A stretch of 63,302 nucleotides of DNA, taken from contig CANRDF010000004.1 of assembly GCA_947629255.1 (NCBI GenBank), forward strand, positions 1-63,302. Direction: 5' to 3'. Under the pieces are notes generated by a model. It ran no database searches. It had not been told where the DNA came from and worked only from the letters and a program-made list of their open reading frames with translations. Source of the stretch: an uncultured Bacilli bacterium. GTDB lineage: Bacteria; Bacillota_I; Bacilli_A; RF39; UBA660. Below are positions 34,408-48,972 of this stretch, in pieces. The first letter of the stretch is position 1, and each line of letters opens with the position of its first letter. Position numbers and translations under genes: made by a program.

Positions 34408-34500
34408 AGTAAGGAGGTATAAAAGGAGAGAAGTGGTAAAAAATCAAAATATAATTTTTTCCTACTTGAATTTTTATTTTATTTTTGATATACTGTATAC

Positions 34501-34609
34501 AGATGGAGGAAACTTCATAAAATAAAAAGGAAGCATTTCAGTTTAGCTATGCTGAATGTCTACCTATAAAGAGTATAGACATTTACATTTTTGTAAGTGT
34601 CATTTTTTT
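34501..34609 (+). ncRNA. Putative antisense antitoxin RNA A
   Basis: Promoter TTGAAT(34466)-N17-TATACT(34489); 5' hairpin ATGGAG-GAAA-CTTCAT; terminator GACATTTACA-tttt-TGTAAGTGTC-A-T7; overlaps the peptide stop and 3' UTR. Confidence 0.7.
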
Positions 34610-34695
34610 ATTAGGAAAATAATTAATATGATTTCCCATAATATGGTGATTACATACTGCAAGACTTTTAAACGATATATATGTCTTTTCGTCAT
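34600..34695 (-). CDS. Putative type I toxin peptide A (31 aa)
   Basis: MTKRHIYRLKVLQYVITILWEIILIIFLIKK; AAAGGGGTG RBS; promoter TTGCTA-N17-TAATAT (34810-34782); homolog at 46499. Confidence 0.75.
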   Translation of the reverse strand: MTKRHIYRLKVLQYVITILWEIILIIFLIKK

Positions 34696-34841
34696 ATTCA
34701 TCACACCCCTTTCTTCTTTAAATTTTGTTATAGAGAGAAGAAAGTGGTAGACACTCAGCAACTAAAATGCTTCCTATGAACATATTAGCACACTTTTATA
34801 ATATTAGCAAGCAAAAAAATGATAATTATCTACTGAAAATA

Positions 34842-45079: not shown

Positions 45080-45796
45080 GTGAAGAAAGAAAACTGGGTG
45101 TTAATAGGTTTACTAGGTGTGATTGTAGTGATTGCTTGTGTGTGTGCCTTCTTTGCTTTTCAAAATAGAGAAACGGAAGAAAAGGATGCAATAAAAATAA
45201 AGGAAGAATATGGTTCTTTGAATGGTCAAGTAAATGAAAATAATAAAAAAGAATATCCTGTTGTAGAACTTGATGATGACAATCCTTTTGTATATAAAAC
45301 AGAAGAAGAAATTGTAAAGATTTTAGAAAGTGGGTCTGGCATTATTTATTTTGGTTTTCCAACTTGTCCTTGGTGTCGAACTATACTGCCAATTTTAGAG
45401 GAGGCAGCTAAAGAAGAAAGTATTGGTGAGATTTATTACTTAAATATCAAAGACATTCGTTCTACTCTTGCTTTAGATGAAAATGATAAAGTGATTACTC
45501 AAAAAGAGGGTAGTGCCAATTATTATAAAATATTAGATTTATTAAAAGATTATTTAAGTGATTATACTTTATATGATTCCAAAGGAAAAAGTATTGAGAC
45601 CAATGAAAAAAGACTTTATGCTCCCACCATTGTAGCAGTTCAAGGTGGGAAGATTAAAGCATTTCATGAGGGAACTGTAGATGCACAAGAAACAGGGTAT
45701 GAAACATTGTCCGATAGTGACCGAGAAAAACTTAAAAATACTTTAAAAGAATTATTAAATTCAATCAGTTTAGATGTTTGTACGGATGCATGTTAA
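45080..45796 (+). CDS. Membrane-anchored thioredoxin-fold protein (CPWC)
   Basis: N-terminal TM, IIYFGFPTCPWCR, YAPTIV. Confidence 0.82.
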   Translation: MKKENWVLIGLLGVIVVIACVCAFFAFQNRETEEKDAIKIKEEYGSLNGQVNENNKKEYPVVELDDDNPFVYKTEEEIVKILESGSGIIYFGFPTCPWCRTILPILEEAAKEESIGEIYYLNIKDIRSTLALDENDKVITQKEGSANYYKILDLLKDYLSDYTLYDSKGKSIETNEKRLYAPTIVAVQGGKIKAFHEGTVDAQETGYETLSDSDREKLKNTLKELLNSISLDVCTDAC

Positions 45797-45831
45797 GAAA
45801 AGTAAGTATAGCTTTTCTTTTTCTTTATGAC

Positions 45832-45942
45832 AAAAAATGACACTTACAAGCAATTGTAAATGTCGTAAATCCATATAGGTAGGCATTCAGTAATGGAAAA
45901 CTGAATACTTCCTTTTTTAATTTTATGAAGTTTCCTTCATCT
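45832..45942 (-). ncRNA. Putative antisense RNA B (orphan, no cognate peptide gene)
   Basis: Promoter TTGAAA(45977)-N17-TATACT(45954); ATGAAG-GAAA-CTTCAT hairpin; GACATTTACAA/TTGTAAGTGTC terminator plus T-run. Confidence 0.62.
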
Positions 45943-46105
45943 GTATACAGTATATCAAAAATGAGATAAAATTTCAAGTAGGAAAATATCATTTTTTGCT
46001 TGCTAATATTATAAATGTATGCTAATATGTTTGTAGGAAGTTTTTTAGAAAAACTGGGTGCCTTTTCACCTATCGGCTATGATAAGCTCGAGGAGGTGAT
46101 GAGCC

Positions 46106-46222
46106 ATGGATAAGCGAAGAACTTTTGTAATAAAGATTTTCAAATATCTATTAGCACTTGCTACATTATTTACAATATGCTTTTTAGCATTTTTGTACGT
46201 AATGATGCAAAAAGGCACTTAA
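46106..46222 (+). CDS. Putative type I toxin peptide C (38 aa)
   Basis: MDKRRTFVIKIFKYLLALATLFTICFLAFLYVMMQKGT; AGGAGGTGA RBS; promoter TTGCTA(46000)-N17-TAATAT(46023). Confidence 0.75.
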   Translation: MDKRRTFVIKIFKYLLALATLFTICFLAFLYVMMQKGT

Positions 46223-46325
46223 TAAAATTCAAATAGAATCTTATTAAATGCCTGACTATAGGTGAGGCATTCAGCGGCTATTCTGAAATACCTTCCTTTT
46301 TTATTTTATGAAGTTTCCTCCATCT
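46209..46325 (-). ncRNA. Putative antisense antitoxin RNA C
   Basis: Promoter TTGAAT(46360)-N17-TATACT(46337); GAAA hairpin; terminator AGGCATTTAATAA.../TTATTAAGTGCCT-TTTT. Confidence 0.68.
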
Positions 46326-46498
46326 GTATACAGTATATCAAAAATAAAATAAAAATTCAAGTGGCAAAAAATAATATTTTTGCTTGCTAATATTATAAAA
46401 GTGTGTTAATATGTTTGCAGGAAGCATTTTAGTTGCTGAGTGTCTACCACTTTCTTCTCTCTATAACAAAATTTAAAGAAGAAAGGGGTGTGATGTAT

Positions 46499-46594
46499 AT
46501 GAGTCAAAACAGGAAATTTATACTTCAAATATTTGATTACATTATCACAATATTATGGCAAGTAATATTTATTCTTTCCATAATAAAGAAATGA
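46499..46594 (+). CDS. Putative type I toxin peptide D (31 aa)
   Basis: MSQNRKFILQIFDYIITILWQVIFILSIIKK; AAAGGGGTG RBS; promoter TTGCTA(46384)-N17-TAATAT(46407). Confidence 0.75.
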   Translation: MSQNRKFILQIFDYIITILWQVIFILSIIKK

Positions 46595-46696
46595 CACTTA
46601 CAAGTAAATTGTAAATGTCTCCAATCTTTTTCGGTAGGCATTCAGTGTGCAAAACTGAAATGCTTCCTTTTTTATTATATGAAGTTTCCTTCATCT
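46585..46696 (-). ncRNA. Putative antisense antitoxin RNA D
   Basis: Promoter TTGAAT(46731)-N17-TATACT(46708); GAAA hairpin; GACATTTACAA/TTGTAAGTGTC terminator. Confidence 0.68.
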
Positions 46697-46821
46697 ATAT
46701 ACAGTATACCAAAAATAAATATAAAATTCAAGTAGGAAAAAGTGATTTTAAAACTTTTTGTTTCTTCTTGAGAAATCAAATGATTTCTTTTATAATAGAG
46801 TTTAAGAAAGAGGTGAGAGTT

Positions 46822-48102
46822 ATGAACATCTCGTTACTACCAGCAGATAAATATATTGTACTTAATAAAACACTTCTTACAGAATTAGATTGTAAATATT
46901 TAGTAAGTCTTTATGAACCTATTATTGGCTCCAATGCAGTCAGTTTATATATGACTTTATGGAGAGACTTAGAGCGTTATAATTCTGTAAGTACCGATTA
47001 CTCTCATCATCACCTTATGACTCTGTTAAAAATGAATTTAGAATCCATTAAAATGGCTCGTAAAACATTGGAAGCTGTTGGATTATTAAAAACTTATTAT
47101 GAAGCAGGGGAACCAAGTAACTATGTCTATGAATTATATTCACCTATGACTCCAAAAGAGTTTTTTGCAAATCCTATTTTTAATGTTGTTTTATACAATA
47201 ACATCGGGGCGAAAGAATATGACTTATTAAAACAAGAATTTTCCGTTTTACCGTTTTCTTTCAAAGACTATATAGAAATTACGACACCTTTTGATGAGCT
47301 CTTTAAATCATCCAGTGATTCTGTTTCCTTTGAGGCGATTGGAAGAGAAGTTTTACCGATTACTATGCAAGACCAAGTAGATTTTGATTTACTGATTTCT
47401 AGTTTGCCAAGAGGAATGGTAACTGAAAAAACACTTACCAAAAAAATGAAAGAACTTATCAATAACTTAGCGTTGGTTTATGATTTAGATACTTTAAAAA
47501 TGTGTGAAATTATAAGATTATGTATGAATGAAAAAGGTGCGATTGACAAAGAAGAACTACGAATTCAAACAAGAAAATATTATCAATATAATCATCATGG
47601 AAAATTACCAACTCTTATTTATCGGTCTCAACCTGATTATTTAAAAGACCCAGTCGGGGATACATCAAAAAAAGGAAAGATTATTGAAGTTTTTGAAAAT
47701 ACAACACCTTATGATTTTCTTCGAAGTAAATATCATACAGGAAGTCCCACAAATAGGGATTTAAGACTTATTGAATATTTATTGGTCGATGTTGGATTAC
47801 AGCCGGCTGTATGTAATGTGCTCATTGATTATGTTCTTAAAAAAAATAATAATAAATTAAATAGTTCTTTTGTAGAAACGATTGCTGGTCAGTGGAAACG
47901 AATCGGGGTTCAAACAGCAAAAGATGCGATGGCATTAGCCGAGAAAGAACATAAAAGAATGATGAATAAATTAAATAAAGTAAGTAATAAACCTGTCTCT
48001 AATGATGTACCAGTATGGTTTAATGAAAAGATTGAAAAAGAGGGTATGACAGAGGAAGAATCAAATGAACTTGAAAGTATGTTAAGTAAATATAAAGATT
48101 AG
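46822..48102 (+). CDS. dnaB: Replication initiation / helicase loader DnaB (Bacilli type)
   Basis: LYEPIIG..AVSLY, LEAVGLLKTY, YELYSP, NVLIDYVL, IAGQW; AGGTGA RBS before ATG 46822; precedes dnaI. Confidence 0.9.
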   Translation: MNISLLPADKYIVLNKTLLTELDCKYLVSLYEPIIGSNAVSLYMTLWRDLERYNSVSTDYSHHHLMTLLKMNLESIKMARKTLEAVGLLKTYYEAGEPSNYVYELYSPMTPKEFFANPIFNVVLYNNIGAKEYDLLKQEFSVLPFSFKDYIEITTPFDELFKSSSDSVSFEAIGREVLPITMQDQVDFDLLISSLPRGMVTEKTLTKKMKELINNLALVYDLDTLKMCEIIRLCMNEKGAIDKEELRIQTRKYYQYNHHGKLPTLIYRSQPDYLKDPVGDTSKKGKIIEVFENTTPYDFLRSKYHTGSPTNRDLRLIEYLLVDVGLQPAVCNVLIDYVLKKNNNKLNSSFVETIAGQWKRIGVQTAKDAMALAEKEHKRMMNKLNKVSNKPVSNDVPVWFNEKIEKEGMTEEESNELESMLSKYKD

Positions 48103-48111
48103 GAGGGCCTT

Positions 48112-48972
48112 ATGTTTGTAAGTGGAAATAAAAATATAGAAGCATTAGAAAAAAATTTAAAAGAAGCATGTCAAAATGAGAGTTTCCGTGAATTAGTGAA
48201 GTCTGTTGGACTTACCAAAGAAGAAACAATGAAAAAAGTTACTAAATTACAAGATACTGTGGAAGAACTTGAACATTGTAAAAAATGTAAAGGTCTTTTT
48301 GAATGTAAAAATGCTTACTTAGGACATGTGAGTATGCCTAAGAAAGAAGAAGGATTATTCACTTTCTCTTATGTTCCATGTCGTTATAAAGTGAAAGAAA
48401 ATGAAGTGAGAAAAAGTGAACTTGAAAAAAATAAAGAAGCAAGAATGAAAGATATTGATGGCAGTGATAAAAAAAGAGCAAAAGTGATTAAATGGATTAT
48501 TGAATACTTTGAAAACTTTGATTTTTCAAAACCTCAAAAAGGACTTTATTTAAGTGGAAGTTTTGGCTCTGGAAAAACATTTTTAATCGGTGCTTTATTA
48601 AATGAACTAGAAGAAAAGAAAAACGTGACTACTGAACTTATTTATTTTCCTGAAGTTTTAAAAGATTTAAAAGATTGGGAATTTTATGATGCTAAGATGA
48701 ATTATTATCAAACAGTGGATGTTTTGTGTATTGATGATATTGGAGCCGAAAAGGTGAGTGAATGGAGTCGTGATGAAGTATTGGGAACGATTTTACAATC
48801 GAGAATGAATTCTCATTTACCAACCTTCTTTACATCCAATTTAACTTTAGAAGAACTAGAAATTCATTTAGCTGGGAAAGAATTGGATAAATTAAAAGCA
48901 AGAAGAATTATTGAAAGAATCAAACAACTCACGGAAGAACTTTCTTTAATAAGTGAAAATCGAAGAAAATAA
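48112..48972 (+). CDS. dnaI: Primosomal protein DnaI
   Basis: Zn-binding CKKC..C..C, GLYLSGSFGSGKT, IDDIGAE, RDEVLG.ILQ.R, PTFFTSN, RIIERI. Confidence 0.93.
   Translation: MFVSGNKNIEALEKNLKEACQNESFRELVKSVGLTKEETMKKVTKLQDTVEELEHCKKCKGLFECKNAYLGHVSMPKKEEGLFTFSYVPCRYKVKENEVRKSELEKNKEARMKDIDGSDKKRAKVIKWIIEYFENFDFSKPQKGLYLSGSFGSGKTFLIGALLNELEEKKNVTTELIYFPEVLKDLKDWEFYDAKMNYYQTVDVLCIDDIGAEKVSEWSRDEVLGTILQSRMNSHLPTFFTSNLTLEELEIHLAGKELDKLKARRIIERIKQLTEELSLISENRRK

Follow-up and report, generated by a model that had tools for sequence, protein, structure and literature searches.

The 63,302 nucleotides (nt) of DNA analysed here (hereafter the window), from contig CANRDF010000004.1 of GenBank assembly GCA_947629255.1 of an uncultured Bacilli bacterium, carry a tandem array of units of about 370–390 nt, located between an open reading frame (ORF) for a thioredoxin-like protein and DnaB_2-like and DnaI-like genes. 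The array holds two complete units, C and D, and the 3' remnant of another, B, and a fourth cassette, A, lies away from it (Table 1). Units A, C and D look like type I toxin–antitoxin systems, as judged from their predicted products. In each of them the toxin promoter consists of TTGCTA and TAATAT, 17 nt apart, with a TGn extension, and the predicted toxin messenger RNA (mRNA) of about 250–270 nt codes for a hydrophobic peptide of 31–38 amino acids (aa). A strong Shine–Dalgarno (SD) sequence is present in every unit, GGGGTG in A and D and GGAGGTGA in C; one hairpin stands directly 3' of the stop codon, and a second one is followed by a U run. A convergent antisense RNA of about 115–125 nt spans each mRNA from the stop codon to the 3' end. 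The subject of this work is a helix in which the first ca. 30 nt of the A, C and D toxin mRNAs pair with both strands of their own terminator hairpin, and which an earlier note on this DNA had proposed as a conserved RNA switch acting on the ribosome-binding site (RBS).

Relatives were collected in one scan of genome contigs, using as anchor a 24-position pattern taken from the antisense promoter and the first stem-loop (SL1) of the antisense RNA, outside both arms of the helix. The scan returned 13 loci (L001 to L013), all on contigs of metagenome-assembled genomes. Eleven were labelled uncultured Bacilli or Bacilli bacterium and two, L008 and L013, uncultured Muribaculaceae, which could be due to a binning error or to gene transfer. 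Together with the window, and with T or C allowed at one anchor position, these loci made up 25 distinct units, 22 with a toxin ORF and three orphans (B and the first units of L001 and L004) that lack toxin promoter, leader and ORF. Nineteen of the 22 ORF-bearing units carry the 5'-3' helix, with best duplexes of −33.0 to −50.0 kcal/mol that begin directly after the −10-like box. The orphans provided the background: there, the best duplex between the 3' arm and upstream sequence reached just −16.2 to −22.2 kcal/mol.

The helix between the ends of the toxin mRNA

RNAfold minimum-energy structures of the predicted full-length A, C and D mRNAs all contain the 5'-3' helix, with 30 pairs in A, 30 in D and 17 in C between the first 40 and the last 65 nt. 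The arm sequences that the earlier note had assigned in C and D were found exactly at the positions given in Table 1. The 5' arm is one continuous stretch of about 29 nt, the first half of which pairs with the descending strand of the terminator and the second half with the ascending strand, and the terminator loop turns into an internal loop of 6–7 nt within the long helix. Arm–arm duplexes had energies of −44.9 (D) and −32.8 kcal/mol (C), compared with means of −13.7 and −14.3 kcal/mol for shuffled 5' arms (z = −10.1 and −5.8, respectively); across the nine arm types tested against shuffled leaders, z was between −5.8 and −10.1.

The helix also coincides with the predicted ends of the transcript, its pairing beginning at the predicted +1 and finishing at the U run. 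From the −10-like hexamer down to the first paired base the distance is 6 nt, as in unit D, except for L007, where it is 8 nt, and L008, where it is unclear; for L001b, L002b, L004b and W_C the automated call placed the hexamer at 11 nt, and TAATAT at 6 nt was read from the sequence. Taken alone, the 3' arm folds into a hairpin ending at the U run, which upholds the claim of the earlier note that this arm can alternatively form the mRNA terminator. The energy of the hairpin ranges from −17.1 to −0.9 kcal/mol (D −13.8, A −6.5, C weak), and in 10 of the 19 units it is weak (−0.9 to −6.6 kcal/mol). When the long-helix state was compared with the terminator hairpin plus the best fold of the rest, the former was predicted to be on average 19.5 kcal/mol more stable (10.2–28.0 kcal/mol over the 19 mRNAs).

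Conservation of the pairing was assessed on an alignment (A2) of the 19 mRNAs from predicted start to terminator, made with plain MAFFT; the ORF-bearing units without the helix (L006, L011 and L010b) and the three orphans were left out of the alignments. RNAalifold recovered the 5'-3' helix as the sole consensus structure, with 23 pairs, 14 of them changed on both sides. Pairing was possible in 96.3% of the 432 helix cells, compared with 83.7% in shuffles, and 56 cells, compared with 16, were changed on both sides; neither value was reached in any of 500 shuffles. Sliding the partner by 1–3 columns left just 37–49% of cells paired. Because 11 of the 19 mRNAs share nearly the same arms, the test was repeated on nine mRNAs from seven arm groups (A3), giving 26 pairs, 16 of them changed on both sides, and 92.1% of cells paired versus 76.1% after shuffling (0 of 500 shuffles). 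In an alignment-free arm-swap matrix, cognate arms had a mean duplex energy of −40.1 kcal/mol versus −19.3 kcal/mol for 228 non-cognate combinations between groups, the cognate partner being the best in nine of nine rows and eight of nine columns. The covariation thus spans nine different arm sequences.

The strand to which the helix belongs was apparent from the kind of mismatch tolerated. Among the 432 helix cells, 60 are G.U and 4 are A.C, and the sense duplex is stronger than its opposite-strand equivalent in 18 of 19 units, by 10.8 kcal/mol on average, the lone exception being L008 (sense −32.4, opposite −33.4 kcal/mol). The helix therefore belongs to the sense transcript and is neither an inverted repeat of the DNA nor a feature of the antisense RNA. 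Combined, RNAalifold, pair-count shuffles, strand bias and arm swaps agree on the conserved long-range helix with both arms changing together that the earlier note had described; as far as structure modelling and comparison can tell, its existence and its selection are close to certain. Support from covariation for a long-range mRNA helix is here unusually clean, and the nine natural arm variants amount to ready-made compensatory mutants.

Two other structures involving the arms were analyzed in the same way. The terminator hairpin covaries too: 84.2% of its cells pair, both sides differ in 10 of 13 pairs, and none of 500 shuffles does as well. This signal may come in part from selection on the complementary stem-loop of the antisense RNA. 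A hairpin between the two halves of the leader, possible by transitivity, can pair in 80.8% of cells, mostly through G.U; it showed no covariation, its score being reached by all 500 shuffles, and was rejected as a selected structure. Sequence within the long helix varies freely with the exception of alignment columns 24–29 of A2 (46438–46443 in D), where a near-invariant U-G-R-G-U-G, present across all arm types, pairs with C-A-Y-Y-C-A of the 3' arm.

Antisense RNAs, peptides and arrangement of the cassettes

Consensus scanning identified minus-strand promoters for B, C and D, formed by TTGAAT or TTGAAA, 17 nt and TATACT with TG extensions, together with intrinsic terminators. The antisense RNAs fold into three stem-loops (z = −4.9 to −6.1). 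SL1, at the 5' end (46679–46694 in D), is a hairpin that has no complement in the mRNA proper; SL2 is complementary to the mRNA terminator; and SL3, which overlaps the toxin stop codon, serves as terminator of the antisense RNA. Cofolding of antisense RNA and mRNA predicted 91–101 intermolecular pairs, all within mRNA nt ~166 to the end. Folds and cofolds agree with the earlier note in making the 3' arm of the helix, through SL2, a target of the antisense RNA. They also agree with it on the likeness between the two RNAs, the toxin leader resembling the SL2/terminator segment of the antisense RNA.

The end of the antisense −10 box and the first ca. 25 transcribed nt are identical or nearly so in the window (46679–46708, 46308–46337, 45925–45954 and 34489–34519) and in all of L001–L013, though toxins, arms and terminators of the cassettes are otherwise unalignable. 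This conservation is partly a matter of ascertainment, because the same segment served as search anchor. The transcribed part folds into a hairpin whose loop is GAAA, or GGAA in one of the L010 units, and the SL1 stem of A and C holds a G.U pair that exists on the antisense strand only. The conservation still suggests that the 5' element is a modular part of the antitoxin, and it can be used as a handle for finding further cassettes. Orphan antisense genes (B and the first units of L001 and L004) keep an intact promoter, SL1 to SL3 and the terminator, and occupy the upstream edge of the array.

Peptides from the 16 intact ORFs examined are 25–38 aa long and all have one hydrophobic stretch and a net positive charge, the best 17-aa Kyte–Doolittle mean being 1.7–3.9. 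A length of 31 aa is kept in nine of the 11 units of group 1, and the remaining two are frameshifted. In unit D, translation could start at ATG 46493 or at ATG 46499, the distance to the SD being more favourable for the latter. Unit C has a 4-codon ORF (ATG AGC CAT GGA TAA, 46099–46113) whose ATG abuts the SD and which runs, in a different frame, into the beginning of the 38-aa ORF; in A and D there are two in-frame ATGs instead. The toxin promoter of D matches 8 of 12 consensus positions, which is under the threshold of the consensus scan, and was identified by its sequence pattern.

Frameshifted or interrupted toxin ORFs were observed at L004:1603–1841(−), L009:948–1189(+), L008:943–1190(+) and in L011. 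The 5'-3' helix is kept in L004b, L009a and L008 despite the damaged ORFs and is lost in L011. Unit number varies at orthologous sites with the same flanks, the site of A holding one unit in the window and two in L002. The array beside the thioredoxin-like gene has a counterpart in L001, which shares the layout of an orphan plus two units, with different toxin variants.

Database searches pointed to a family without annotated members. No Rfam family reaches its gathering score in the cassettes, and only two tRNAs do so in the window; with E values up to 10 allowed, 12 Rfam matches were listed for 45780–46800, all far under threshold, the best of them (E 0.2) to an unrelated small RNA. Pfam and NCBIfam gave nothing credible for nine peptides, and ESM Atlas look-alikes of the D and C peptides provided no usable match or had scores ≤0.81. 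A phmmer search with the 38-aa C peptide against 1.84 billion representatives returned no match at E up to 0.001, a result of low power given the short query. No match of unit D was found by blastn in plasmid and phage collections. Keyword searches of the literature did not retrieve a description of the cassette family, relatives of which could be contained in the supplementary locus lists of PMC2887945 and PMC8594479. The cassettes can accordingly be presented as a previously unannotated, type I toxin–antitoxin-like family of uncultured gut-type Bacilli.

Table 1. Positions of predicted cassette features and flanking genes in the window
Feature	Position	Strand	Remarks
Unit A	~34440–34835	minus	fourth cassette, away from the array
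Unit A toxin promoter and 5' arm	34746–34810	minus	promoter starts at 34810; arm 34774–34746
Unit A ORF	34600–34695	minus	31 aa plus stop
Unit A 3' arm (terminator hairpin)	34529–34564	minus	
Antisense RNA A	34499–34613	plus	approximate, placed by analogy with D
Thioredoxin-like ORF	45080–45796		array flank
Unit B	45832–45995		3' remnant
Orphan antisense RNA gene B	45839–45977	minus	promoter 45977–45949; terminator 45864–45839
Unit C	45993–46378		complete cassette
Unit C toxin promoter	46000–46028	plus	
Unit C 5' arm	46036–46073	plus	end UCACCU is anti-SD
Unit C SD	46092–46099	plus	GGAGGTGA
Unit C ORF	46106–46222	plus	38 aa; stop included
Unit C 3' arm	46258–46296	plus	with U run to 46302
Antisense RNA gene C	46203–46360	minus	promoter 46360–46332; terminator 46253–46213
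Unit D	46377–46750		complete cassette
Unit D toxin promoter	46384–46412	plus	TTGCTA, 17-nt spacer ending TGT, TAATAT
Unit D 5' arm	46420–46448	plus	
Unit D SD hairpin	46450–46490	plus	stem 46450–46458 with 46477–46485; SD GGGGTG 46485–46490
Unit D ORF	46493–46594	plus	stop included; 33 aa from ATG 46493 or 31 aa from ATG 46499
Unit D post-stop hairpin	46593–46619	plus	its minus strand is the intrinsic terminator of antisense RNA D
Unit D 3' arm (mRNA terminator hairpin)	46633–46667	plus	U run 46668–46673
Antisense RNA gene D	46584–46731	minus	promoter TTGAAT-17-TATACT 46731–46703; RNA ~46697–46584; terminator 46619–46593
DnaB_2-like gene	46822–48102		array flank; Pfam
DnaI-like gene	48112–48972		array flank; Pfam

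Role of the helix and access to the ribosome-binding site

Directly downstream of the leader, all arm types have an anti-SD segment, then a loop and then the SD. Eighteen of the 19 helix-bearing mRNAs contain an upstream anti-SD partner, and the SD is predicted to be sequestered in all 19 full-length mRNAs, the cost of opening the RBS being 4.6–13.3 kcal/mol. Binding of the antitoxin was simulated in two ways, by deleting the part from the stop codon to the 3' end and by explicit cofolding. Upon blocking, the ensemble mean cost of opening the region from SD to start went from 8.7 to 9.9 kcal/mol, with an increase in 16 of the 19 mRNAs (D 8.4 to 9.4, A 7.0 to 8.2, C 8.9 to 14.0 kcal/mol) and a consistent direction over all seven arm groups. 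When the 3' part is blocked, the released leader ACC of D (46446–46448) pairs with GGU of the SD and the released UACC of A with GGUG, lengthening the 9-bp SD hairpin across a 1x1 loop by 3 and 4 bp, respectively. In 13 of the 19 mRNAs, blocking makes one or more leader nucleotides swap partner, so that they leave the 3' arm and pair in the RBS region instead. In line with this, scanning nascent lengths showed that the appearance of the 3' arm lowers the opening cost by 2.0–5.8 kcal/mol in 10 of 11 mRNAs. In several units the linker upstream of the 3' arm (46620–46632 in D) is complementary to the purine-rich SD region; this pairing may explain a peak of opening cost seen just before the 3' arm is transcribed, and the linker could be a second anti-SD within the antitoxin-complementary region.

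Folding of the mRNAs also indicated where the antitoxin might bind. In four of five mRNAs the antitoxin-complementary part offers a single-stranded post-stop loop, a linker of 4–14 nt and the internal loop of 6–7 nt; W_C is the exception, its only single-stranded toehold being the post-stop loop. By prediction, the antitoxin can therefore reach its target in the folded mRNA.

The helix is best explained, with somewhat better than even odds, as the closing helix of a type I toxin mRNA, a counterpart of the helix P1 of bsrG mRNA with its displacement mechanism. During transcription, the 3' end of the leader and the adjacent anti-SD would keep the SD inside a long hairpin, and the transcript would end at the terminator hairpin. 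This hairpin would then be swapped for the end-to-end helix, predicted to be better by −10 to −28 kcal/mol, which would bury both ends of the RNA, so that the toxin mRNA should be long-lived, and would pull 3–5 leader nucleotides off the SD hairpin, making the RBS somewhat easier to open. The antisense RNA would nucleate on the post-stop loop, the linker and the internal loop, zip through the 3' arm and displace the leader. Once freed, the leader would fold back and extend the SD hairpin by the few base pairs predicted for D and A, resulting in less translation, and the intermolecular duplex of about 90–100 bp would be a likely substrate of RNase III.

A number of observations weigh against this reading or against its generality. 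L006, L011 and L010b bear an ORF and lack the helix: L006 has a different peptide and leader, the ORF of L011 is interrupted, and in L010b no promoter could be recognised. In C, the pairing of UCACCU with AGGUGA is present in both states, the SD hairpin beating the extension of the helix, and no lengthening was seen in the cofold. No leader nucleotide swaps partner in six of the 19 mRNAs. Blocking adds just 1.0 kcal/mol in D and 1.2 kcal/mol in A, and acts in the opposite direction in three of 19 mRNAs (L001c, L004b and L009a, the last two frameshifted), and in the nascent-length scan the cost for L008 rises from 5.6 to 7.8 kcal/mol on addition of the 3' arm. The RBS is predicted to be closed in both states, with a total of paired nucleotides that hardly shifts (e.g. 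15 versus 17 in D). The exchange of the terminator hairpin for the long helix faces a kinetic barrier, and evidence for the cassette mechanism consists of computational prediction throughout. Finally, the Bacillus subtilis systems txpA/RatA and bsrE/SR5 share the 3'-overlapping layout and a very strong SD (PMC3531473, PMC6562991), and no change in the SD region was seen on binding of their antitoxins, which act by RNase III-dependent decay only (PMC6562991); the layout alone therefore proves no switch.

What the earlier note had proposed for the RBS is retained in part. Its suggestion that the end of the 5' arm doubles as an anti-SD applies to the predicted folds of A and D, whereas in C this segment is engaged with the SD whether or not the 3' part is available. 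The direction of its switch is supported by the effect of blocking; the idea that end-to-end pairing unmasks the RBS is not, since the RBS is closed in the full-length mRNA and the gain in A and D is small. The components of our reading differ in strength. The helix itself, its competition with terminator and antitoxin, and the overlap with the anti-SD are well founded. The helix probably acts as a P1-like closing or stabilising element that competes with the antitoxin. That its displacement measurably lowers translation has slightly less than an even chance of being correct, and is kept at that level because txpA/RatA and bsrE/SR5 have the same layout without a change at the SD.

The helix could instead be a stability element only, shielding both ends of the mRNA from exonucleases as in par RNA I and having no effect on translation. 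Its limits at the predicted first nucleotides and at the U run would fit such a role, as would the small translational effect predicted for A and D, and a helix at the extreme 5' end of the par toxin RNA is described as contributing to differential stability (PMC7472228). We consider this possible but doubtful: the overlap between leader end and anti-SD recurs in several unrelated arm types (the 13 mRNAs with a partner swap), the direction of the effect is the same in all seven arm groups, and protection of the ends is compatible with the displacement reading rather than exclusive of it.

It is unlikely that the helix locks the full-length mRNA into an inert reservoir as in hok or AapA1, untranslated and refractory to the antitoxin until an end is trimmed. 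A closed RBS in the full-length RNA and a very stable helix covering much of the antitoxin target are what such a reservoir would show; hok mRNA uses 5'-3' pairing plus 3' processing (PMC3834814), and end-to-end, long-distance pairing is among the standard traits by which type I toxin mRNAs are described (PMC8594479). However, the helix lowers the predicted cost of opening the RBS, both in the blocking test and in the nascent scan, and the SD is sequestered by a local hairpin in which the 3' end is not involved. The antisense RNA overlaps the 3' end of the mRNA, unlike in hok, where it faces the 5' leader, and the persistence of single-stranded toeholds argues against a fully antitoxin-refractory pool.

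An extension of the displacement reading, bolder and quite improbable, takes the leader as an imperfect built-in copy of antitoxin SL2 that enters a three-way competition with terminator and antitoxin for the 3' segment, coupling termination, decay, antitoxin access and translation. During synthesis, the second half of the leader could make termination less efficient by pairing with the first strand of the terminator; conversely, in units with a weak local hairpin, this pairing could complete a long-range terminator. Once the transcript is released, the leader would determine how stable the mRNA is and how sensitive to the antitoxin, and on displacement it would close the RBS. To our knowledge, no described type I system has been shown to couple these four processes through one leader of about 30 nt.

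Two further explanations deny any function of the RNA pairing. The leader might be a decaying inverted copy of the SL2/terminator segment, which it does resemble, with functionless complementarity; a relic would lose its pairing, and here double changes keep it (in 14 of 23 and 16 of 26 pairs) while the remaining mRNA is poorly alignable, so that we regard this as very improbable. An inverted repeat acting in the DNA, for instance as a recombination site or as the termini of a small mobile element, would suit tandem units with varying copy number between related genomes and arms that do form such a repeat, but has next to no probability in view of the strand bias, the coincidence of the arms with predicted transcript ends, the lack of matches in plasmid and phage collections and of a transposase-like ORF inside the 370–390-nt unit; together with a decaying duplicate it was rejected on strand bias and compensatory changes.

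Comparison with described type I systems

End-to-end pairing of the toxin mRNA, sequential folding and sequestration of the SD are shared with hok/sok (through fbi-tac) and AapA1/IsoA1. In those systems the long-range pairing shuts the RBS, in hok until 3' processing (PMC3834814), and the antisense RNA binds the 5' region. Here, by contrast, it is the 3' arm to which the antisense RNA would bind, and folding predicts a looser RBS in the presence of the helix; a lowered cost of opening the RBS and an antisense RNA at the 3' end do not match fold-back inhibition of the hok/sok type.

The par (Fst) system of Enterococcus faecalis pAD1 has in common with the cassettes convergent RNAs that meet at their terminators, a helix at the 5' end and a stem-loop around the SD. 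In par RNA I, the helix sequestering the 5' end provides stability and a separate stem-loop sequesters the SD (PMC7472228). RNA II blocks translation through direct repeats at the translation start, none of which were seen here, and antisense complementarity in the cassettes is confined to the 3' region of the mRNA. The peptides had no Pfam match and therefore gave no Fst-family signal.

The closest system is bsrG/SR4. In bsrG mRNA, nt 1–35 pair with nt 232–262 to form helix P1, and a separate terminator is located at nt 263–296 (PMC3834814). SR4 binds the 3' part of the mRNA, the first contact being made between its own terminator loop and a loop of the mRNA close to the stop codon (PMC3834814). 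The SD of bsrG lies in a 4-bp helix; binding of SR4 frees nt 1–33, this helix grows to 8 bp and translation falls (PMC3834814, PMC6562991), and the bsrG/SR4 duplex is also cleaved by RNase III (PMC3834814, PMC6562991). Both there and in the cassettes, a convergent antisense RNA covers the 3' part of a toxin mRNA of about 250–300 nt, the first ~35 nt of which pair, P1-like, with a 3' segment inside the antitoxin-complementary region. The SD is held in a local helix, which in bsrG lengthens from 4 to 8 bp on antitoxin binding; in the cofolds of the cassettes a lengthening from 9 to 9+3 bp in D and to 9+4 bp in A is predicted, and none in C. Both antitoxins, moreover, carry at the 5' end a stem-loop without complementarity to the mRNA, and have a terminator loop opposite a loop that the mRNA forms close to its stop codon. 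The switch concept of the earlier note is thus already known, having been demonstrated experimentally in bsrG/SR4.

The two systems differ in several respects. Homology was not detected via Rfam, Pfam or NCBIfam, searches in which the BsrG sequence itself was not directly compared; Rfam is said to hold the antitoxin RNAs of 13 known type I families (PMC8594479), and whether SR4 is included was not verified. The cassettes form tandem arrays in chromosomes of uncultured Bacilli and are known from sequence alone. In bsrG the 3' strand of P1 precedes a terminator that is distinct from it; here the terminator hairpin itself serves as the 3' strand, and long helix and terminator are therefore mutually exclusive. 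We read the cassettes, on the strength of these modelled likenesses, as an undescribed family of type I toxin mRNAs in which a P1-like helix closes the molecule and the antitoxin overlaps the 3' end. They would add one structural twist, the use of the terminator as helix strand, and no new principle; and they suggest a wider use, or a repeated origin, of the logic of P1 displacement, for which bsrG/SR4 is the only experimentally known case.

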